Below are positions 3,874-58,266 of a stretch of DNA of 64,000 nt, piece by piece. The notes under the pieces were generated by a model that was given only the letters and a program-made list of their open reading frames with translations, did not search any database and had not been told where the DNA came from. The number at the start of each line of letters is the position of its first letter. Within the stretch, counting starts at the first letter, position 1. The position numbers were made by a program, and so were the translations under genes. This stretch comes from Candidatus Omnitrophota bacterium (GTDB lineage Bacteria > Omnitrophota > Gorgyraeia > Gygaellales > Profunditerraquicolaceae): positions 12,275 through 76,274 of the forward strand of contig JAHIKK010000112.1 of NCBI GenBank assembly GCA_018897555.1. Direction: 5' to 3'.

Positions 3874-5082
3874 TTAGAGATCCAGATGATGCCCTAGTTT
3901 CTCTTTTTTTGTTTTAAGGTATTTATAATTCTGAGCGTTAGGCTCAATCTCTAAGGGTACCCGCTGTGAAACTCCTAAGCCATAACCTTCCAGGCCGACA
4001 ATCTTGCGCGGATTATTCGTTAACAGCCTGATCTGCTTAATCCCTAAATCTACAAGAATCTGGGCGCCAATACCGTAATCGCGTAAATCCGCCTTATGCC
4101 CCAATGCTTCATTGGCCTCTACCGTATCCATTCCGTTATCCTGAAGGTTATACGCGCGCAGTTTCTCGACTAATCCGATGCCGCGGCCTTCTTGATGCAT
4201 ATAAAGGATCACGCCTTTTTTCTCCAGAGCAATCATCTGCATCGCCTTTTCTAATTGCCTTCCGCAGTCACAGCGCAATGAGCCAAAGACATCCCCGGTT
4301 AAACACTCTGAATGTACGCGGACCAATATTGATTCATCTAACCAGCTACCCATACACAAAGCAATGTGTGTCTGGCCATTGGTCTGATCGCGATAAACAA
4401 TTAACTTAAACTCACCAAATTTCGTGGGTAATTTGGTCTCTACAATTGCCTCCACCAGTTTCTCGCTCCTGCGGCGATATTCAATCAGGCTGGCAATCGT
4501 ACAAATCTTTAAAGTATGCTTCTTGGCAAACTCCCGAAGCTGCGGCAGGCGAGCCATAGTCCCGTCATCATTCATAATCTCGCAAATTACTCCGGCCGGA
4601 TAAAGCCCGGCCAGCCGCATTAAATCCAAGCTGGCTTCCGTATGCCCTGCCCTGACCAAGACTCCGCCGCGGCGCGAACGCAAAGGAAAAATGTGCCCGG
4701 GACGCACCAGGTCTTCCGGCTTGGTTTGCGCATTAATTAAAACTTCAATGGTTTTAGCCCGGTCGCCAGCAGAAATACCCGTACTCACCCCTAAAGCGGC
4801 ATCCACAGAAATCATCCAAGCGGTCTTAAAAGGATCCTCATTACCGGCTTGCAAAGTATTCTTAAGCATAGGATCAAGCTCCAATAAACGCAGCCGCTCC
4901 TCCTCCATGGGAACACAAATCAGTCCCCGCCCAAATTTAGCCATAAAATTAATGTCTGCGGATTTAACGCTGGAAGCGGCCATCACTAAATCCCCCTCGT
5001 TCTCCCGGTCTTCATCGTCAACGACAATGACCATTAATCCGGCTTTTAAATCTTCTAAAATTTCTGTGATGGAATTAAACAT
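3874..5082 (-). CDS. ribBA: Bifunctional 3,4-dihydroxy-2-butanone-4-phosphate synthase / GTP cyclohydrolase II
   Basis: [20 protein letters not shown] (DHBP synthase) plus C-terminal GTP cyclohydrolase II (HSECLTGD...CDCG). Start set at the MFNSITEIL Met, because the longer track ORF would run into the riboswitch terminator; RBS ggag lies upstream of it. Confidence 0.9.
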
Positions 5083-5089
5083 AAGTCTC

Positions 5090-5123
5090 CATAAAAAAAA
5101 TAAACCCGAAAACAATCTTCGGG
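5090..5123 (-). terminator. Rho-independent terminator/attenuator (FMN riboswitch expression platform)
   Basis: Minus-strand cccgaagattgttttcggg hairpin followed by tttatttttttt, directly upstream of the ribBA RBS. Confidence 0.8.
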
Positions 5124-5138
5124 CGTATTAATGTCAAT

Positions 5139-5272
5139 CTTTTCTCATCTGGACTTTCGCCGTAAAAAAAACGGCACCATCGGCCCTGGAATCTCACCAG
5201 ATCTGTCCGCCACAAAATCCATGGCTGACTCGCGGGCTAAACCGCCGGTAAGGAATTGCACCTTGCCCTAAA
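5139..5272 (-). promoter_or_regulatory. FMN riboswitch (RFN element) controlling the rib operon
   Basis: Minus-strand sequence GGGCAAGGTGCAATTCCTTACCGGCGGTTTAGCCCGCGAG ... GGTGAGATTCCAGGGCCGATGGTGCC ... GAAAGTCCAGATGAGAAAAG matches the conserved FMN aptamer core (GGGCAGGGTGAAATTCCCGACCGGCGGTA..AGCCCGCGAGC ... GGTGGATTCAG..GCCGACAGT.AAAGTCTGGATGGGAGAAG). Confidence 0.9.
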
Positions 5273-5342
5273 GATTAATTGTTATTATCTTAACAGAAAA
5301 ACGGGGCTTGTCAATACAATTAAAAACAACTATAATACATCT

Positions 5343-5813
5343 ATGCCCAATAAAATTCTAAAACAAATCCATAAAAAATTACTCCGCAAAGAAAAAACCG
5401 TTGCGGTTGCCGAATCCTGCAGCGGTGGGGAACTTTCCAGCCTCTTGACCAGTTTACCGGGATCTTCCGGTTATTTTCTTTTAGGCGTAGTTACTTATAG
5501 CAACAAATCTAAGGAAATGATCCTAAATATCCCGGCTAAAATAATTGCCAGATACGGCGCAGTTTCCCGCCAAGTGGCAATATTAATGGCCCGGAACATC
5601 CGTAAAAAAACACTTGCCGACTTTGGCCTGAGTATTACCGGAATTGCCGGCCCCACCGGAGCAACTACAACCAAACCCATCGGCATGGTATTTATAGCTT
5701 TAGCCAAAAAAAATAAAACCCTCTGCCGGTTATTTTTACTATCCGGAAAGAGGGAAGCTGTCCGTAAACAATCTGTTGGCGAAGCCCTGCGCTTATTATA
5801 CGCGCAGATATAA
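5343..5813 (+). CDS. CinA C-terminal domain protein (nicotinamide-nucleotide amidohydrolase PncC family)
   Basis: TVAVAESCSGGELSSLLTSLPGSS...ITGIAGPTG motifs of the CinA/PncC family; start trimmed to MPNKILK so it does not overlap the riboswitch. Confidence 0.7.
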   Translation: MPNKILKQIHKKLLRKEKTVAVAESCSGGELSSLLTSLPGSSGYFLLGVVTYSNKSKEMILNIPAKIIARYGAVSRQVAILMARNIRKKTLADFGLSITGIAGPTGATTTKPIGMVFIALAKKNKTLCRLFLLSGKREAVRKQSVGEALRLLYAQI

Positions 5814-6269
5814 CTTTAAAACCAGCAAAAGCACAATATTAGTATAAATACCGGCGATCAAGTCATCTCCCATTACCCCGATTGCGCCATGCCTATTCTG
5901 CAGCCTGGCTGCCGGATACGGCTTAAGTGTATCCAGAATACGAAAGATGAGAAAGGCCAGACAAATTATCTTAAAATCATTAGGCATAAAACTAAGCGCA
6001 ATGAGCATGCCTGCCACTTCATCAATTACAATACAGCCCGGATCTTTTTTATTTAACAATTTCTCCGTCCGGCCGCTAGTCACCAGGCCCAAGGCGATGA
6101 TACCGGCAATAAATAAAAAATAGGTTGCCCCGGGAGTGCCCTTAAGTAAATAATATACTCCTACTCCGGCGATACTGCCGAAAGTTCCGGGGACAAGGGG
6201 TAAATAACCGATAAAAAAAACAGTGCTAGAAGCTTTAACTAAAAAATCCCCCGCTCTTTCAAATTTCAT
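5796..6269 (-). CDS. pgpA: Phosphatidylglycerophosphatase A
   Basis: PLVPGTFGSIAGVGVYYLL and membrane profile typical of PgpA. Confidence 0.75.
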   Translation of the reverse strand: MKFERAGDFLVKASSTVFFIGYLPLVPGTFGSIAGVGVYYLLKGTPGATYFLFIAGIIALGLVTSGRTEKLLNKKDPGCIVIDEVAGMLIALSFMPNDFKIICLAFLIFRILDTLKPYPAARLQNRHGAIGVMGDDLIAGIYTNIVLLLVLKLYLRV

Positions 6270-6853
6270 AGGCGGGTAATTATTTTACGGTTGCTCCAAA
6301 GATAGGATAACCCGGAATAAAGAGTTAACCCTACGGTCACCAGCATCAGGAAAAATATTCCCTGGCGGAAGACCTTTTCCCAGGCAGGATTCCAATTATA
6401 ATATTTAAGCATAATTTCTTTAAACACAATAGAACATAAAATAACAAGAATAACTAACATCTGTAAAAATGTCTTGTGTTTACCAGCGCGCGCAGCAGAT
6501 AATACTTTACCTTTATTCAAAGCAAATAGGCGTAAAGAAGTAATTAATATTTCTCTAGAGACGATAATTATAAACATCCAAGCATCAATTAACTGCAATT
6601 GCACGAATGCCGTAAAAGCCGCCAGTACCAGAATTTTATCTGCGATAGGATCCATCAATCTACCAAAATCGGTAACCATGTTATCTCTTTTGGCTATAAA
6701 ACCATCAAGAAAATCAGAAACGGCAGCAAAAATAAATATAATAAGCGCTATTAGTTTTATCCACCAAATTTTATCGAGTCCTGGAAGAAAAAGAAAAGCA
6801 AAGACAAAAGCAAGAATGATTCGAAACATGGTTATTTTATTAGCAAGATTCAT
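6266..6853 (-). CDS. pgsA: CDP-diacylglycerol--glycerol-3-phosphate 3-phosphatidyltransferase
   Basis: NKITMFRI N-terminus and the D-G-x2-A-R (DFLDGFIAKR) CDP-alcohol phosphatidyltransferase motif. Confidence 0.8.
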   Translation of the reverse strand: MNLANKITMFRIILAFVFAFLFLPGLDKIWWIKLIALIIFIFAAVSDFLDGFIAKRDNMVTDFGRLMDPIADKILVLAAFTAFVQLQLIDAWMFIIIVSREILITSLRLFALNKGKVLSAARAGKHKTFLQMLVILVILCSIVFKEIMLKYYNWNPAWEKVFRQGIFFLMLVTVGLTLYSGLSYLWSNRKIITRL

Positions 6854-8094
6854 ATTTTTTCCCCCACTAAGTCATATTCTAAAGTATCTGTAATTTTTAC
6901 TTGGATAAATTTACCTATTTCCAGCGGCCCAGTTGTATTTATATACACCACTCCGTCTACCTCCGGGGCATCACCCTGACTGCGCCCGATATATGCACCA
7001 TCCTGCTTTTCCTCAACCAGCACAGTAATATTCTTTCCCAGGAATTTCGCATTTATACCGGCGGCTATCTCCCGCTGCGCGGACATAATTTTATCAAATC
7101 TTTCCTGTTTTAGCTGTAGAGAGATTTGCCCCTTAAAATTATAGGCAGGCGTGCCTTCTTCCCGGGAATAAATAAAAGCTCCCAGCCTGTCGAATTTGGC
7201 CTCTTTAACAAATTCCAGCAACTCACTAAATTCTTTTTCCGTCTCTGAGGGAAAACCTACGATTAAGGAGGTACGTAAATAAACCCCGGGAATAGTTTTC
7301 CTGATTTTTTTGATTAAAGCCATAATCTCTTCCTTAGCCATCGGCCGATGCATAGCTTTTAGAATACGGTTATTAATATGCTGAATCGGCAAGTCAATAT
7401 ATTTACATATCCGCTCTGAAGAAGCAATCAGCTTCAGCAGCTGGCTGGTAATCCGTTCCGGATGCAAATATAAAAGACGGATCCATCCGATATCCGGCGC
7501 ATTACTAATTATTTTCTGTAAAAGCCCGGTTAGCTGGCTTTTACCGGTAGTATCCATACCAAAACCGGTAATATCCTGGCCGATAATATTTAACTCTGAA
7601 ATCTTCTGGCGATTAAAACGCTCTACATTTCGGATTATGGCGGGCTCATCCAGGCTCTCCAGGCTGCCTTTAATCTTAGGGATTACGCAGTAACTACACT
7701 GGTTTACACAGCCTTCGCATATTTTCAGGTAAGCGTAATGTTTAGGGGTTAAAGCAAACCTTTTTGATTCGTGGTTTAATCCCAGTGTCCCCACGAAAGC
7801 ATCTACTTCCGGTAAATCCTTGGCTAAATTTTTATAACGCTGCGCCAGGCAGCCGTAAACAATTATTTTTTTAAGTTTCCCCTGTTTCTTTAGCTGGACT
7901 AAATCCAAAATTACATCGATGGATTCACGCTTTGCCTCTTGGATAAAAGCACAGGTATTCACTAAAACTACTTCTGCCTGAGTAATGTCATCAACAATAG
8001 AATAATCTTTAAACTTAAGCCGCCCGGCAAGAGCTTCGGCATCCACCAGGTTTCGGGGACACCCTAAGGTGATTATCCCTATTTTTTCTTTCAT
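6850..8094 (-). CDS. rimO: Ribosomal protein S12 methylthiotransferase (radical SAM MTTase, RimO-like)
   Basis: KIGIITLGCPRNLVDAE N-terminal MTTase domain, radical-SAM CEGCVNQCSYC motif, C-terminal TRAM domain; ~414 aa like RimO. Confidence 0.7.
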   Translation of the reverse strand: MKEKIGIITLGCPRNLVDAEALAGRLKFKDYSIVDDITQAEVVLVNTCAFIQEAKRESIDVILDLVQLKKQGKLKKIIVYGCLAQRYKNLAKDLPEVDAFVGTLGLNHESKRFALTPKHYAYLKICEGCVNQCSYCVIPKIKGSLESLDEPAIIRNVERFNRQKISELNIIGQDITGFGMDTTGKSQLTGLLQKIISNAPDIGWIRLLYLHPERITSQLLKLIASSERICKYIDLPIQHINNRILKAMHRPMAKEEIMALIKKIRKTIPGVYLRTSLIVGFPSETEKEFSELLEFVKEAKFDRLGAFIYSREEGTPAYNFKGQISLQLKQERFDKIMSAQREIAAGINAKFLGKNITVLVEEKQDGAYIGRSQGDAPEVDGVVYINTTGPLEIGKFIQVKITDTLEYDLVGEKI

Positions 8095-18324: not shown

Positions 18325-18347
18325 AAATAAAGGGGACGGTTTATTTT
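18325..18347 (-). repeat. Member of the dispersed 'aaaatagaaacggtccc' repeat family (single copy, variant aaataaaggggacggtttatttt)
   Basis: Nearly identical to the left arm at 55261-55284; overlaps the stop codon of the helicase gene. Confidence 0.5.
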
Positions 18348-21267: not shown

Positions 21268-22305
21268 TTAATCTTTATTAATCACCTGGATCATTTCACA
21301 AAGCCGGCCAAAATCACGCAGATTAAAGTTCATCACTAACCGTGGTAAATTAAGAAATTCTTTTTCCTGGATTTCTTTGGAGGTGGGAGGCGAAACTTTA
21401 ATTTCACCGCTGGTCAAAATATCTTTAAATTTTTTATTTATAAACTTCAGCGTCTTTTCAGAGATCTGGCGGTTTAACCTTATTACCGCCAGGCCCAAAA
21501 CATACCTTATCGAGTGATATACCCGGTAAAAATCCTCGATATAGCTGACTGCTTGATCCGCAGTTTTTACAATCGCAAAAAGGCTAAGATCTTCTTTATT
21601 AATAAATCCTTTTTTAACCAACTGGCTCTTTACAAAATGCATCCAGCTGGTCCAATAGGTTGATCCTTTCGGCTCCATTAAAACTATCGGCCGGGGGCGG
21701 GATTTACCGGTTTGCACCAAGGTAATCATTTCAAACCCCTCATCCAGCGTGCCAAATCCCCCCGGAAAAAGAGCAGTGGCATCCGTCTCTTTAACAAAAA
21801 TCAATTTTCGGGTAAAGAAATATTTAAAGTTGATCAATTTTTCTTTTTCGTCAATGTAGGGGTTGGGTTTTTGTTCAAAGGGCAGGCGGATATTCAGCGC
21901 AAAATCCTTGCTGCTTCCGGCCCCCTTATTCCCGGCCTCCATTACCCCGGGGCCTCCGCCGGTTACAATCATATAACCTTTTTCGGTTAACTTCCGGGAG
22001 AGCTCTTCTGCCATTTTATATTCAGCAGAATTATTTTTTGAGCGGGCTGAACCAAAAATAATTACCTTTTTAATAGCCCGATACGGAGAAAATACCTTAA
22101 AAGAATAACGCAGTTCCTTAAGCGTATTATTTGCCAGCTTCAGGTCTCCTCGATCGATAGACTCCTTGCCCAATTTAACACTGGTAGTTAATATTTCGCG
22201 TAATAAATGCTCCGTTTCCAGGGAACCGGATTTCCTGGCAAGTTCAGCAATCAAGTTATCCATAACCTGATCCCCAACTTCATAATCTTTTAAAAACCTA
22301 TCCAT
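21268..22305 (-). CDS. LOG-family (TIGR00730) nucleotide 5'-monophosphate nucleosidase, long PpnN-like form
   Basis: IFGSARSK...GGGPGVMEAGNKGA...PGGFGTLDEGFE LOG motifs with N- and C-terminal extensions. Confidence 0.7.
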   Translation of the reverse strand: MDRFLKDYEVGDQVMDNLIAELARKSGSLETEHLLREILTTSVKLGKESIDRGDLKLANNTLKELRYSFKVFSPYRAIKKVIIFGSARSKNNSAEYKMAEELSRKLTEKGYMIVTGGGPGVMEAGNKGAGSSKDFALNIRLPFEQKPNPYIDEKEKLINFKYFFTRKLIFVKETDATALFPGGFGTLDEGFEMITLVQTGKSRPRPIVLMEPKGSTYWTSWMHFVKSQLVKKGFINKEDLSLFAIVKTADQAVSYIEDFYRVYHSIRYVLGLAVIRLNRQISEKTLKFINKKFKDILTSGEIKVSPPTSKEIQEKEFLNLPRLVMNFNLRDFGRLCEMIQVINKD

Positions 22306-22333: not shown

Positions 22334-22570
22334 TCAATAATTAAAAAGATCCTTTAATACATACTGTTTACCTGAAACCTTATTCAAAGCATTAAGCAGC
22401 CGGTATTGTATTTTCAAATTCAAACGCCTGCCCCTGGCCGCACGCGAAACCATTTTATGCGTAATCTGCTCAGTGGAATTACTTACCAGATCATGAGACT
22501 TAAACCCATGTTCAGCCATGATTCTGGCAATCGGCTGCTCCCCAAGGTCTCGTTGGATTTCGTTATTCAT
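22334..22570 (-). CDS. Hypothetical 78-aa protein
   Basis: ORF whose ATG overlaps the TGA of the upstream Bro-N gene (ATGA) and lies inside repeat copy R1. Confidence 0.4.
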   Translation of the reverse strand: MNNEIQRDLGEQPIARIMAEHGFKSHDLVSNSTEQITHKMVSRAARGRRLNLKIQYRLLNALNKVSGKQYVLKDLFNY

Positions 22571-23208
22571 GATAAAAATAGAAACGGTCCCATTATTCCT
22601 TCACGTTTTAACCGTTTTATCTTCATATATTGACTAGGCGTAACTCCAAAGGTAGCTTTGGAGATTTCTGCTGTTAAAATTTCGTAATCCTTTTTCTCTT
22701 GTGCCCCGCGTTTCTGCCATTCATCCGTAAGCTCTTCACGAATAGCAATACCCCGCATTCTTTTCTCAATCCAATCATCAGGATAACCTTTAAGCTTGTA
22801 AAGCATCCTTGTTCTTTTTGTAGCAAGCTCAGGATTTTCAATCTCCTGAATACGTTCATAGCCAACTTTCGCTAACCAACGTTTAAATAGCTCAGCTTTA
22901 GGAGATGGCACTGACTGAACAATACGAAAAATACCTTCTGTATTAGCGCAATCGGTCTCGTATTTTTTGCCGTCAGACGCTTCTAATTTGAGTCCGTGAC
23001 AAAATGTCACGACCTCGCTACCTTCCTCTCTTAATCTTTGTTTTAATTTACGCCAATAAGCGCCCGCATCAATACTGTCCGTTAATACTCCGCACACATC
23101 CGCAACGGAAAACCACCACTCATTCTTATGAATGGTTTTTCGTACCTTCTTACCTTTAAATATCGCTATCTTTGTCTCCATACTCCCCTCCTTTTCCTGC
23201 GTTATCAT
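22567..23208 (-). CDS. Bro-N domain protein (DinD / phage antirepressor-like)
   Basis: KIAIFKGKKVRKTIHKNEWWFSVADVCGVL matches the BRO-N fold; its last 8 codons (MGPFLFLS*) are encoded by the repeat element itself. Confidence 0.6.
   Translation of the reverse strand: MITQEKEGSMETKIAIFKGKKVRKTIHKNEWWFSVADVCGVLTDSIDAGAYWRKLKQRLREEGSEVVTFCHGLKLEASDGKKYETDCANTEGIFRIVQSVPSPKAELFKRWLAKVGYERIQEIENPELATKRTRMLYKLKGYPDDWIEKRMRGIAIREELTDEWQKRGAQEKKDYEILTAEISKATFGVTPSQYMKIKRLKREGIMGPFLFLS
22571..22599 (+). repeat. Repeat family copy R1 (gataaaaatagaaacggtcccattattcc)
   Basis: 24/24 identity with 23483-23506; same family as 55304-55327 and 57065-57090. Confidence 0.7.
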
Positions 23209-23221
23209 TACTTTCTCCTTA

Positions 23222-23461
23222 CTATAACTGACGCAGAAAAGGCCAAAATCTAACAGAAATTATCGTTACCGTAGCTAAAACAACTAAAAATATCCCCATT
23301 ATTTTATTATTGCGAATTTCTTTTTGCATAGAGATAGGTTCAATCCGCCAATTGATCCTTTCATAGAATTTCTTTTGGATTTCAATAGTCAGTTCTGGCT
23401 TAAAGAAAACGAATAGACCAACTATTATGCCAATCACAGAAATTAAAATTGGGGCAAGCAT
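23222..23461 (-). CDS. Small membrane protein (2 TM helices)
   Basis: 79 aa, two hydrophobic helices, GAGGAG RBS upstream. Confidence 0.4.
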   Translation of the reverse strand: MLAPILISVIGIIVGLFVFFKPELTIEIQKKFYERINWRIEPISMQKEIRNNKIMGIFLVVLATVTIISVRFWPFLRQL

Positions 23462-23482
23462 ATTGATCTCCTCTCAGGAATA

Positions 23483-23519
23483 GATAAAAATAGAAACGGT
23501 CCCATTGTTTCATTATTTC
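23483..23519 (+). repeat. Repeat family copy R2 (gataaaaatagaaacggtcccattgtttcattatttc); direct repeat of R1
   Basis: Direct-orientation copy; R1/R2 bracket the Bro-N gene and the 79-aa membrane protein gene. Confidence 0.7.
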
Positions 23520-23588
23520 GAAGTATCGCTCTTTTCTTATGCCCAAAAAGTGCCCAATTTATTCAATAATTTTCCTTAATGTATATTA

Positions 23589-23655
23589 GCGGGTGACGAT
23601 GGCTGGATTCGAGGACGCTTCAGGCGGCCGAGAAACAGGCATCGGCAGGACCCGC
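23589..23655 (+). other. GC-rich structured element A (gcgggtgac...ggcaggacccgc closing stem), candidate small RNA or structured repeat
   Basis: ~67 nt at >60% GC in an AT-rich intergenic region; 6-bp closing helix gcgggt/acccgc plus internal cgatg/catcg pairing; 23666-23695 then forms atcct-tc-gggcc-tac-ggccc-tc-aggat. Confidence 0.3.
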
Positions 23656-23703
23656 ATAAACCGAGATCCTTCGGGCCTACGGCCCTCAGGATGACAGTAT
23701 ATC

Positions 23704-23731
23704 TTGACAACGCCGGAATTTCAAGTATACT
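23704..23731 (+). promoter_or_regulatory. Sigma70-type promoter for rpmB (TTGACA-16nt-TATACT)
   Basis: Consensus -35 and near-consensus -10 about 40 nt upstream of the rpmB AAGGAG RBS. Confidence 0.6.
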
Positions 23732-23770
23732 TAATAAAATTAAAGAATAAATCTATAAGGAGTTCTAAAA

Positions 23771-24025
23771 ATGCTTAGAAAATGCGTAATCTGCAAAAAG
23801 GGTGCACTTCAAGGAAAAGTATTGGCCAGAAAAGGCCAATATAAAGCCAAGGGCGGTACAGGCTCAAAGATCGCCCGCTGGAGCAAACGTAAATTTTTCC
23901 CAAATCTACAAAAAGTAAAAATTTTAGTTGATGGTACATCGCATCGGGTATTCATCTGCACCAAATGCATCAAAAAAGGTGATTTCAAAAAAGCCACTCC
24001 CAGAAAACTTAAAATCACTACTTAA
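23771..24025 (+). CDS. rpmB: 50S ribosomal protein L28
   Basis: CxxC...KFFPNLQKVKILVDG...CTKCIKKG zinc-ribbon L28 signature. Confidence 0.85.
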   Translation: MLRKCVICKKGALQGKVLARKGQYKAKGGTGSKIARWSKRKFFPNLQKVKILVDGTSHRVFICTKCIKKGDFKKATPRKLKITT

Positions 24026-55260: not shown

Positions 55261-55327
55261 AAATAAAGAGACCGTTTCTATTTTTCTTGGGCCCGATTCT
55301 AGTAAAATAGAAACGGTCCCTTTATTC
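55261..55327. repeat. Inverted pair of the 'aaaatagaaacggtccc' repeat family forming a ~17-bp hairpin; probable bidirectional terminator
   Basis: aaataaagagaccgtttctatttt-[19-nt loop]-aaaatagaaacggtccctttattc; on the minus strand followed by a T-rich tract; sits 3' of the PH-domain protein gene. Confidence 0.6.
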
Positions 55328-55334
55328 ATTACTA

Positions 55335-55874
55335 TTATTTGTGCAATATATCAGAAATCTTTAGGTGGACGTCTTTAGGATTCTTTATGTCAATCCAAGT
55401 TAATTCTTTTACTGGTCCTCCAGCAGTATCAAATAGAATATTCCCGATTTTAGTGTTATACCATAAAACATTCACTTCGATATTCTGCACTTTGCTCAAG
55501 GGGCATTCTTTGTATGTCTTACCAATCATACCTCTTTGGGTAATAATTCTTTTATTAGTAATAGCATATATTGTGTTCTTCCATTGAGAGCGATTGATGA
55601 AAAAAGTTATAACCGTAATAACCCAAAACGGGGTCCAGAATAGGGAAATAATAGTAAATAATGATGTTGCGCCAAAAAAAGAACCCATAAATGGCCTTAC
55701 TTCAAAATACAATTTTTCTTCTGGAAGTAATGTGCCAAGGGACAATATTTTTGGAGTTATATAATGAAATTCTTTATGGATTTCCTTGGCTGAACCTTCA
55801 AGAGAACTTCCACAATGTTTACACTTAATGGCCTCATCCTGTATTTCTTCTGCGCAAAAAGGACATTTTTTCAT
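55335..55874 (-). CDS. Zinc-ribbon + membrane-anchored bacterial PH (bPH_2/YdbT-like) domain protein
   Basis: N-terminal CPFC...CKHC zinc ribbon, TM hairpin, C-terminal PH-like domain. Confidence 0.5.
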   Translation of the reverse strand: MKKCPFCAEEIQDEAIKCKHCGSSLEGSAKEIHKEFHYITPKILSLGTLLPEEKLYFEVRPFMGSFFGATSLFTIISLFWTPFWVITVITFFINRSQWKNTIYAITNKRIITQRGMIGKTYKECPLSKVQNIEVNVLWYNTKIGNILFDTAGGPVKELTWIDIKNPKDVHLKISDILHK

Positions 55875-55940
55875 TTCATATTCTCCTTTCTTAAATAATA
55901 TTAGAAAACCTCGCTCTACACCAATTAAATGTACTGCTTA

Positions 55941-56027
55941 GCGGGTGGCTTGGGTGTTTTCGACGCGCGTCAGCGCTAGAAAATACCCAAGACAGCCTGC
56001 CCGCCAATCTTTATGGCGGGGACCCGC
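55941..56027. other. GC-rich structured element B (gcgggtggc...ggcggggacccgc), related to element A; contains a cccgcc-aatctttat-ggcggg hairpin
   Basis: Same gcgggtgRc / gRcRgg(g)acccgc closing motif as 23589-23655; nested 13-bp stem cttgggtgttttc/gaaaatacccaag around palindrome gacgcgcgtc; lies in the queA 3' UTR and upstream of the PH-protein gene. Confidence 0.35.
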
Positions 56028-57019: not shown

Positions 57020-57030
57020 ATTTAAAACTA

Positions 57031-57090
57031 GGGGACGGTTCTGTTTTTCCGAATACAATTTTAGAAAAACAGAACCGTCCCCATTATTTA
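57031..57090. repeat. Inverted pair of the repeat family (ggggacggttctgttttt / aaaaacagaaccgtcccc-attattta) forming an 18-bp hairpin between the GH gene and queA
   Basis: Perfect 18-bp stem with 16-nt loop; tail attattt matches family consensus. Confidence 0.6.
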
Positions 57091-58266
57091 ATTCAGGTAG
57101 CCGATAACTTGATCGGTTAAATCGTCAATGGAATAGAGGACTACGCCGTCGGGAGCCAGATCATTAATCAAACGAAGTTGATTAGAAAACAGGTCCGGAT
57201 TGTCTTTCATTAAGAACACCCCCATACCGACATAAATTTTCCCTTTGCCGCGATGGCCCAGGCTGCTCTTTACCACTTCTTTAGCAAACTGATTATCCTT
57301 AGTATAAGACATCAATACCACATAATCAATAATCCCCTCTTCTAACCAACCCGACCAATCCTGGAAGGCGTTGCTATAGGCGCGCTCAGTAACCGGAATA
57401 ACCGCGCAGGAGACCGCTAAACCGGGGGATTTAACTTTAACTAAACTGGTGATTTTACGCAATAAATCCGTAACCTGCTGGCGTTTCCAGTTATCCCAGG
57501 CCAAATACTCATCTTCATTGTTCAGCGTATCTAAAGCATTAATCCCGGTTTTATCGCGAAATCTCTCTATATTCATCAGCCCATAACCATAGGTTAAACC
57601 GAATTTATTAAACCTTGAACCCGGGACAAACGGAATAGGCGATGGATAACGCAGATAATCTAAGTGTATCCCGCTAAATAACGGATAACGGTTAATAATT
57701 TCATTAATAATCGTGAGTATGTACGTTTCTACCCTGGTGTCCCCCGGCTCTAAAAATATCATATCTTCTCTTAAATAATATTTATCCAACTCCGTGCTGG
57801 TAGAAATCTTCGAAGGCCTTTGATACTGATCGCGGGTAAGAATGGAACTGCCGTACTTATTCAGAATATCCGCTTTTTCGTTTTTCCCCAATCCTAAGAT
57901 GTTCACCCAGGCAAAAACTTTAATATTGTTCTGCCCGGCCTCTCTAAGCAATAAATCCAGCGTATCCAACCCGGCGGAGGCAACCATCTGGTCATATTTT
58001 GTTTTGTCAGCAATCCTCGAATCATAATAAGCATTACCCGACTGAAAAATCTGCAGATAAATCTCATTAATTTTAGCCTTATTACATTGCGCGATCAAAT
58101 TATGCACACCGGCTTCAGAATAAAGCATTTTTTTAGCGGAAAACACCGACACCCAAATACCTCGAGGAACAGCCGGCTTAACCGGAATCGGCTGATCTTC
58201 GGCTAAGGCCAATCTAAAGCTGAATAAATAACAGATTAGTAATAGAGTTAATGTTTTATGCTTCAT
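57088..58266 (-). CDS. Secreted glycoside-hydrolase-like protein (GHL10/DUF187-type TIM barrel)
   Basis: Signal peptide, conserved GIWVSVF...NEIYLQIF block. Confidence 0.5.
   Translation of the reverse strand: MKHKTLTLLLICYLFSFRLALAEDQPIPVKPAVPRGIWVSVFSAKKMLYSEAGVHNLIAQCNKAKINEIYLQIFQSGNAYYDSRIADKTKYDQMVASAGLDTLDLLLREAGQNNIKVFAWVNILGLGKNEKADILNKYGSSILTRDQYQRPSKISTSTELDKYYLREDMIFLEPGDTRVETYILTIINEIINRYPLFSGIHLDYLRYPSPIPFVPGSRFNKFGLTYGYGLMNIERFRDKTGINALDTLNNEDEYLAWDNWKRQQVTDLLRKITSLVKVKSPGLAVSCAVIPVTERAYSNAFQDWSGWLEEGIIDYVVLMSYTKDNQFAKEVVKSSLGHRGKGKIYVGMGVFLMKDNPDLFSNQLRLINDLAPDGVVLYSIDDLTDQVIGYLN

Follow-up and report, generated by a model that had tools for sequence, protein, structure and literature searches.

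Which event places two small genes between perfect 24-nt direct repeats in the genome of an uncultured bacterium, and do the repeats mark the ends of what was inserted? We examined this question in a 64,000-nt stretch of a Candidatus Omnitrophota genome (GenBank assembly GCA_018897555.1, contig JAHIKK010000112.1, positions 12,275 to 76,274; hereafter the window), in which GATAAAAATAGAAACGGTCCCATT occurs exactly, on the + strand and in direct orientation, at 22571-22594 and 23483-23506. An original prediction had seen here a tiny integrated cassette, or an insertion mediated by a miniature inverted-repeat transposable element (MITE), and not a core locus. Comparison with related loci supports a derived, lineage-specific insertion of ~1.0 kb upstream of p78, a conserved gene of 78 codons, and the repeat belongs to a MITE/REP-like family of dispersed hairpins, here called R, so that the prediction stands in these two respects. 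The insert is not a clean two-gene unit, however, and it passes beyond the second repeat. We favour, with moderate confidence, recombination at or close to R elements over transposition as the process that assembled the block and set it in place; the direct repeat would then be a by-product. The features of the locus are as follows (ORF, open reading frame; UTR, untranslated region).

21268-22305, minus strand: LOG, the gene beyond p78 as seen from the repeat
22334-22570, minus strand: p78, conserved 78-aa gene, divergent from rpmB and next to it in the ancestral arrangement; its closest relatives are not the same for the first 60 nt and for the 3' end
22567-23208, minus strand: Bro-N ORF (Pfam Bro-N, E = 1.3e-12)
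22571-22594, minus strand: R1, solo arm of an R element; abuts the ATG of p78 and codes for MGPFLFLS, an artificial C-terminus on the truncated Bro-N ORF
22595-22599, minus strand: 5-nt junction between the Bro-N breakpoint and R1, GGAAT in gene sense; fits the loosely conserved RAAT outer flank of R copies
22600-23265, minus strand: Bro-N / DinD-like / PDC-S13 fragment, comprising ~85 nt of conserved upstream region and codons 1-194 of ~275-aa homologs (ORF codon 203)
23222-23461, minus strand: p79, 79-aa gene for a small two-helix membrane protein of an Omnitrophota family, with a weak DUF6199 match
23462-23482, minus strand: leader with ribosome-binding site TATTCCTGAGAGGAGATCAAT, common to L105 (p79) and L046 (unrelated DUF6941 gene)
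23483-23506, minus strand: R2, solo arm of the same polarity as R1, 21 nt upstream of the p79 ATG
23507-23583, minus strand: 77 nt of the insert outside the bracketing repeats, only in the window lineage
23584-23699, minus strand: older GC-rich structured 5' UTR segment of p78, of which 23584-23658 is also in L063, L068 and L076
23696-23731, both strands: back-to-back promoter-like block, kept in all relatives
23771-24025, plus strand: rpmB (L28)

A lineage-specific insert upstream of p78

The exact match of the two 24-nt copies was confirmed, with none expected by chance; the window has no further match with up to three mismatches, and 100 shuffles gave no match at all. Extended rightward, the copies agree in 26 of 27 bases, and in gene sense, that is on the minus strand, the 24-mer reads AATGGGACCGTTTCTATTTTTATC. 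As had been stated, they bracket a Bro-N gene and a 79-aa gene, two minus-strand ORFs at 22567-23208 and 23222-23461. The repeat had also been credited with supplying the end of the Bro-N ORF, stop included, and the start of the next one: copy 1 does code for the last Bro-N codons (..I MGPFLFL S), but the stop and the ATG lie just outside R1, where the TGA of Bro-N (22569-22567) and the ATG of p78 (22570-22568) overlap as ATGA. Nor does the island lie directly between LOG/PpnN and rpmB; p78 (22334-22570) intervenes, and the island is situated between p78 and rpmB.

Contigs with an identical L28 fall into two groups. The window arrangement is present in L001, L002, L006, L007 and L009, whereas the sister lineage (L003, L004, L005, L008 and L010), whose LOG protein is ~95% identical, lacks Bro-N and p79 and has p78, then an unrelated spacer of ~190 nt, then the rpmB promoter. 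None of 44 further metagenome loci with p78 homologs (55-90% identity) carries Bro-N, p79 or an R arm, and in more than 50 related loci rpmB and p78 are direct divergent neighbours, which is the conserved core arrangement. R arms with up to four mismatches number zero in 168 kb of related loci. The empty site with a single repeat copy that had been expected in relatives was sought and found neither in the sister lineage nor in the 44 metagenome loci, the immediate ancestor not being among the samples, and a deletion variant was absent among 14 contigs with identical L28.

The limits of the insert follow from what the relatives retain. The block at 23700-23780 with its back-to-back promoter-like sites is kept in all of them and abuts the p78 ATG in the shortest ones; its sites read TTGACA-16-TATACT on the + strand towards rpmB and TTGAAA-17-TATACT on the - strand towards p78. 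The segment 23584-23658 is older, because L063, L068 and L076 have this GC-rich stretch at the same place. By this comparison, what is new in the window lineage runs from 22571 to ~23583, that is at least 77 nt past R2, or to ~23699 when measured against the shortest relatives. An assembly artefact was considered and rejected for the insert: several independent assemblies show the same arrangement, and at k = 141 (the value given in the contig names) an assembly is not misled by a repeat of only 24 nt.

A smaller variation was seen within the window lineage itself. L002 (~5573-5691) and L009 (~83-201), at the equivalent of window positions 23394-23506, carry a 119-nt tandem duplication and with it a third R copy. 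The duplicated unit comprises R, the leader, the first 23 codons of p79 and ATTTCC, and its second copy begins at the outer end of R; the duplication occurs in two assemblies and may be either a true polymorphism or an artefact.

The surroundings of p78 vary in other ways as well. On the minus strand, 23584-23699 folds into two GC-rich stem-loops in the p78 5' UTR (minimum free energy -49.9 kcal/mol, z = -4.0) that have no Rfam match, and the GTCATCCTGAGG...GGATCTC hairpin (~23659-23697) has a same-place counterpart in L066. Among the p78 relatives L058-L101, flank lengths range from 82 to 790 nt towards rpmB and from 24 to 1090 nt towards LOG, and these flanks hold SUI1-like, ORF6N-like and small secreted-protein genes; in L066, p78 is flanked by a tyrosine integrase immediately upstream and by an ORF6N gene. 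Both sides of p78 are insertion-prone in the relatives. In the sister contigs L003, L004, L008 and L010, the rpmB 5' UTR is longer by 33 nt net (equivalent of ~23745-23760), with a 49-nt stretch (within GAACCCGGCGCTAATCGGTATTGCTCCGGTGTTGTGTCCGTAGAAA) in place of 16 window nt; the window lineage is without it.

R, a dispersed hairpin element

The repeat had been taken to occur at two places. In fact the window contains two hairpins of the same family, and dozens of copies are present in other genomes.

55262-55326, no strand assigned: full R hairpin, following the stop codon of the gene at 55335-55874 (minus strand) at a distance of 11 nt; RNA fold -30.8 kcal/mol, z = -6.0
57022-57091, no strand assigned: variant R hairpin with arms GGGGACGGTTCTGTTTTT, between two co-directional genes; -36.6 kcal/mol, z = -8.6

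R consists of an 18-nt core GGGACCGTTTCTATTTTT, a loop of mostly 8-21 nt and the inverted core AAAAATAGAAACGGTCCC, ~55-60 bp in all, and the 24-mer is one R arm plus 3 nt on each side. When copies are oriented and stacked, AAT/ATT is loosely conserved outside the cores. The inner 20-mer was found exactly in 37 stretches, 28 of them titled Candidatus Omnitrophota (eight assemblies), in a scan that covered one genome per species, and 13 of these copies are in GCA_030693145.1, the sister genome without the insert. The hairpin form is maintained, because sub-families change both arms alike (14 compensated positions among 28 conserved-arm hairpins). Hairpin copies sit 3-30 nt past stop codons or between convergent genes, with exceptions inside ORFs. 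R1 and R2 are solo arms with no hairpin potential of their own (z = -0.49 and z = +0.79), and tests for pairing with nearby sequence gave nothing significant. An arm-like weak match at 18330 was set aside as chance, its partner arm being absent.

One copy inside a protein-coding gene is informative about the mobility of R. In the PurSL gene of L018, a full R hairpin is translated in frame (..GTVSIF..KIETVP..), and the closest ortholog found lacks those ~20 residues at 84% identity (MAFFT alignment; 72% by BLASTP). By this comparison (L018 against P0241 and others) R is insertion-polymorphic and can reside in ORFs, as Rickettsia palindromic elements (RPEs) do; R is probably a mobile sequence. 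Further R arms lie within long ORFs of L021, L024, L031 and L050, the in-frame status being confirmed for PurSL only. The sequence of R is almost invariant across species, and essential genes can accommodate it in frame. In the L018 PurSL (4330-7308), in-frame inserts derived from repeats are present in the linker and in one loop, namely GGGGACAGTCCCC palindromes, a solo R arm and the full R hairpin; a second PurSL, P0242, carries a different insert in that loop.

For R, every Rfam family stayed below its gathering score, and searches at gathering and E-value thresholds returned only an FMN riboswitch elsewhere in the window and sub-threshold generic hairpin matches; nothing relevant on the motif or on palindromic repeats of Omnitrophota was retrieved from the paper collection searched. 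R is apparently a family of interspersed hairpin repeats, from an uncultured phylum, that has not been described before, and we class it as a new member of the kind of repeats that includes repetitive extragenic palindromic (REP) sequences, REPINs, MITEs and RPEs. Like REP/REPIN elements, which are mobilised by RAYT transposases, R is built from a short conserved unit, paired in inverted doublets that fold as hairpins, is dispersed in many copies mostly just after genes, and leaves solo units as relics; its spacers also mix several repeat families, as do REP-based BIMEs. Unlike in those systems, neither a RAYT nor another Y1 transposase was seen in the loci examined around R, the 18-nt core is identical across several species, and copies are also found inside ORFs. 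RPEs share with R the palindromic form and the in-frame position that leaves the ORF (here PurSL) unbroken, but they measure ~100-150 bp against ~55-60 bp, and R is mostly intergenic with one confirmed in-frame case.

The resemblance extends to the Correia elements (NEMIS) of Neisseria, small palindromic repeats beside genes that act as terminators or processing sites and mark rearrangements, although the TA target duplication is not established for R, and to inverted pairs of DNA uptake sequences, which are also palindromic, stand beside genes and are used as terminators. Uptake sequences, however, occur at ~1 copy per kb, also in genes, whereas the core 9-mer of R occurs three times in 64 kb. 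With MITEs, R has terminal inverted repeats, small size and multiple copies in common; the comparison of filled and empty sites is at the protein level only (PurSL), and no transposase lies beside any copy examined. As intrinsic terminators the R hairpins would fit by position and stability, but their stems (18-24 bp) and loops are atypical, and R1 and R2 are not hairpins. The original prediction had set a widespread terminator, unconnected with the presence of genes, against its own reading, and the outcome lies between the two: R is indeed a widespread terminator-like hairpin, yet its solo arms recur at module junctions.

Other hairpin families occur in the same spacers as R. One is represented in the window at 55938-56007 (CTTGGGTATTTTC..GAAAACACCCAAG), shares 93-98% identity with two copies in L027 and with copies in L038 and L066, and sits in 5' or intergenic regions, often close to R. 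The sister-lineage spacer (L003, 5740-6000) carries another palindrome, AGTAGAGGAGGTTTAAACCTCCTCTACT, close variants of which (AGTAGGGGAGG...) adjoin R copies in L035 and L051, both from the same sister assembly (JAUYBI01). Several repeat families are pieced together in the spacers. In L025, L027 and L040, the ORFs that have R on their flanks code for a YhcG nuclease, a protein without assignment and a SWIM protein; no transposase was found among the R-flanked ORFs of the loci examined, whole genomes not having been searched.

The Bro-N fragment and modules headed by R

The bracketed genes do not form the clean two-gene cassette that had been proposed, since Bro-N is short by ~72 codons and the last ~12 codons of p79 are overwritten by the upstream region of Bro-N. 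Homologs of Bro-N number more than 8000, and the best 120 share 81-91% protein identity and are named after Omnitrophota, the Candidate Phyla Radiation, Brocadia, Bacteroidetes and Deltaproteobacteria. Compared with homologs of ~275 aa, the ORF leaves the alignment after ..KRLKRE, at a break 5 nt outside R1, so that ~72 C-terminal codons are missing and the final 10 residues (GIMGPFLFLS) are non-homologous and mostly R1-encoded. The PADLOC PDC-S13 match (6e-88) accordingly covers profile positions 4-199 of 286, with 200-286 missing, and the phrog_15286 match positions 4-200 of 274. At the other end, the true start is probably the ATG at 23181. The DNA is 85-90% identical to the full-length copies L053-L057 over 22600-23259/23265, in otherwise unrelated neighbourhoods. 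Judged by these homologs, the Bro-N of the window is a 3'-truncated gene, and it is probably non-functional; the exact truncated protein is not on record in other contexts. Assignment to the DinD / Bro-N, PDC-S13 family holds for the first ~200 residues, where identity to hundreds of homologs is 83-91% and the Bro-N domain is present; the conserved C-terminal part of the family is missing (~72 residues), and the ORF closes with a 10-residue foreign end.

The DinD-like gene itself acts as a single-gene mobile unit, its near-identical DNA including ~60-100 nt upstream of the ATG (L053-L057, L105). Near-identical copies are single genes in non-phage contexts, and viral contigs hold Bro-N relatives of 40-70% identity only. 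For annotation this means that the Bro-N ORF and the tail of p79 are chimeric and not native proteins.

The p79 family has ~200 proteins, and most named members are from Omnitrophota. In the window, the last ~12 p79 codons are the upstream region of the Bro-N unit, and an identical p79::Bro-N junction exists in L105, with R and a similar leader ahead and the whole module behind a PspC gene. In L046, R and this leader precede an unrelated DUF6941 gene, and in L106 a strong promoter is followed by an R variant and then directly by a p79 homolog. At all four loci (the window, L105, L046 and L106), homology begins at the outer end of R and the DNA upstream is unrelated; solo R arms do recur where gene modules meet. 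In L104 (2501-2978), from another Omnitrophota genome, homologs of p79 and p78 are adjacent with an 8-nt overlap, followed by DUF6941 and M48 peptidase genes; p79 and p78 may be a natural pair.

A further seam lies in p78. Its first 60 nt are 82% identical to the sister lineage and 92% to L059, L066 and L070, whereas over its last 57 nt identity to the sister is 96-100%. The two ends thus differ in their closest relatives, and a recombination breakpoint is therefore placed inside p78, in one of the two lineages; the mosaic is not assignable to either, and the promoter-proximal leader of the window resembles L066. Native p78 leaders end in T-rich strings, TTTTTAT(T)ATC/ACT-ATG (e.g. TTTTTATTATC-ATG), which are similar to the inner end of R1, and no Shine-Dalgarno sequence is visible before p78.

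How the mosaic could have formed

In the explanation we favour, R copies place the same 21-27 nt at many sites and would be prone to breakage or recombination, so that modules could be joined at R by short homology or by illegitimate joins. R, leader, p79 and Bro-N would travel as a unit; the break in Bro-N would lie at the outer edge of R1, whose inner end would merge with the T-rich native leader of p78. The resulting mosaic, which in gene sense runs through 77 nt, R2, leader, p79, the first three-quarters of Bro-N and R1, lies in the 5' UTR of the conserved p78-LOG operon, with the promoter block that rpmB shares on one side and the start codon of p78 on the other; its junction strings are CGTGAAGGAATAATGGGACC and ACGATAATTTCTGTTAGATTTTGG. 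Since the solo arms are unable to form a hairpin, transcription from the ancestral promoter would still reach p78-LOG, and as the insert also contains no complete hairpin, p79, the truncated Bro-N, p78 and LOG can be transcribed together. Through the ATGA overlap, translation of p78 may be coupled to the truncated Bro-N ORF.

Several points weigh against this account. Neither a donor locus nor an intermediate state was found, and no enzyme that moves R was identified. The p78 breakpoint could instead stem from recombination in the sister lineage. The GAT that R1 and R2 have in common on the loop side, beyond the family core, hints that one copy was derived from the other or that both are of the same subtype. 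Transcription, termination and translational coupling are read from the sequence alone. Finally, the same perfect repeats and flanks would result from a single crossover of an R-bearing circle into an R that already existed before p78, a course of events that we judge rather unlikely. In that case a 912-bp circle of R, leader, p79 and truncated Bro-N would have been integrated by homologous crossover or by a putative site-specific recombinase and could be excised again, with TTCAT-R-GTTTC as the deletion junction and CAGGAATA-R-ATTCCTTC (GGAATA-R-ATTCC) as the circle or tandem junction. The perfect 24-nt direct repeats with flanks exactly as for a Campbell-type event speak for it, as do the R, leader, p79 and Bro-N module in a second context (L105), the several loci whose modules start exactly at the outer R end, the L002/L009 variant with its third R, where the upstream junction GGAAAT is similar to that of R1, and the rpmB-p78 spacer as an insertion hotspot with an integrase in L066. 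Yet R stands before p78 in none of more than 50 related loci, the 77 nt past R2 are also lineage-specific so that R2 does not bound the insert, there is a recombinase neither within nor beside the segment, the solo arms lack the dyad symmetry usual for recombinase core sites, and the deletion variant is absent among the 14 contigs with identical L28. Measured against an att-core (Campbell) element, the identical direct core is present at both ends, and the recombinase and empty site were not found.

The other readings fare less well. That the block is the decayed remnant of a larger mobile element or prophage between rpmB and p78, with the R arms as incidental passengers, seems improbable to us: Bro-N is typical of phages and mobile elements (phrogs anti-repressor matches, viral relatives at 40-70% identity), is truncated here, and p78 in L066 is flanked by a tyrosine integrase and an ORF6N gene, but near-identical Bro-N copies are single genes in non-phage contexts, viral contigs contain neither the R 20-mer nor the R hairpin nor the Bro-N|R1 junction sequence, and the same p79::Bro-N junction in L105 indicates that the module moved as a small unit. 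There is very little to recommend the 24-mer as an operator or promoter duplicated before p79 and p78 for their co-regulation. In gene sense, both copies do precede a start codon by 0-21 nt, and L106 has R between a strong promoter and a p79 homolog; most family members, however, are hairpins past stops or inside ORFs in either orientation to genes, loop length varies, neither copy has a sigma-70-like promoter, and 44 p78 homologs function without R. A target-site duplication, left when an insertion sequence or MITE transposase inserted the two genes, is effectively refuted. The segment is flanked by direct repeats, as such a duplication would have it, but known target-site duplications measure 2-14 bp and the repeat, at 24-27 nt, is far longer; the segment has neither terminal inverted repeats nor a transposase, the sequence pre-exists as a dispersed family, and no single-copy empty site was found in the sister lineage or the 44 p78 loci.

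A more far-reaching idea, which we hold to be doubtful, is that R is the recognition site of a dedicated, putative Omnitrophota recombination system that cuts at the outer R end and shuffles R-headed modules. If true, this would be a minimal analogue of integrons or pdif modules, and the 912-bp R2-R1 segment would be one mobile cassette. As in integron attC and pdif/Xer systems, a short sequence recurs at the borders of small promoter-less modules, and one module is met in different contexts; unlike there, R arms have neither attC nor dif architecture, no integrase or Xer-type site was identified, and neither an array nor an empty site was found.

Under the recombination at or near R that we prefer, the tiny cassette with its own flanking repeats gives way to a more general picture of a dispersed hairpin family at mosaic seams, where R marks the places at which small accessory genes join core operons. 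We read the locus as a patchwork made by recombination, in which a candidate defence gene has been broken. The study of mobile elements gains two units that move, namely R and the DinD-like gene with its wide transfer. The wider neighbours of the insert are LOG, a UvrD-like helicase, L28 and RecJ, and the window also contains a flavin mononucleotide (FMN) riboswitch at 5133-5279 on the minus strand (98.1 bits).

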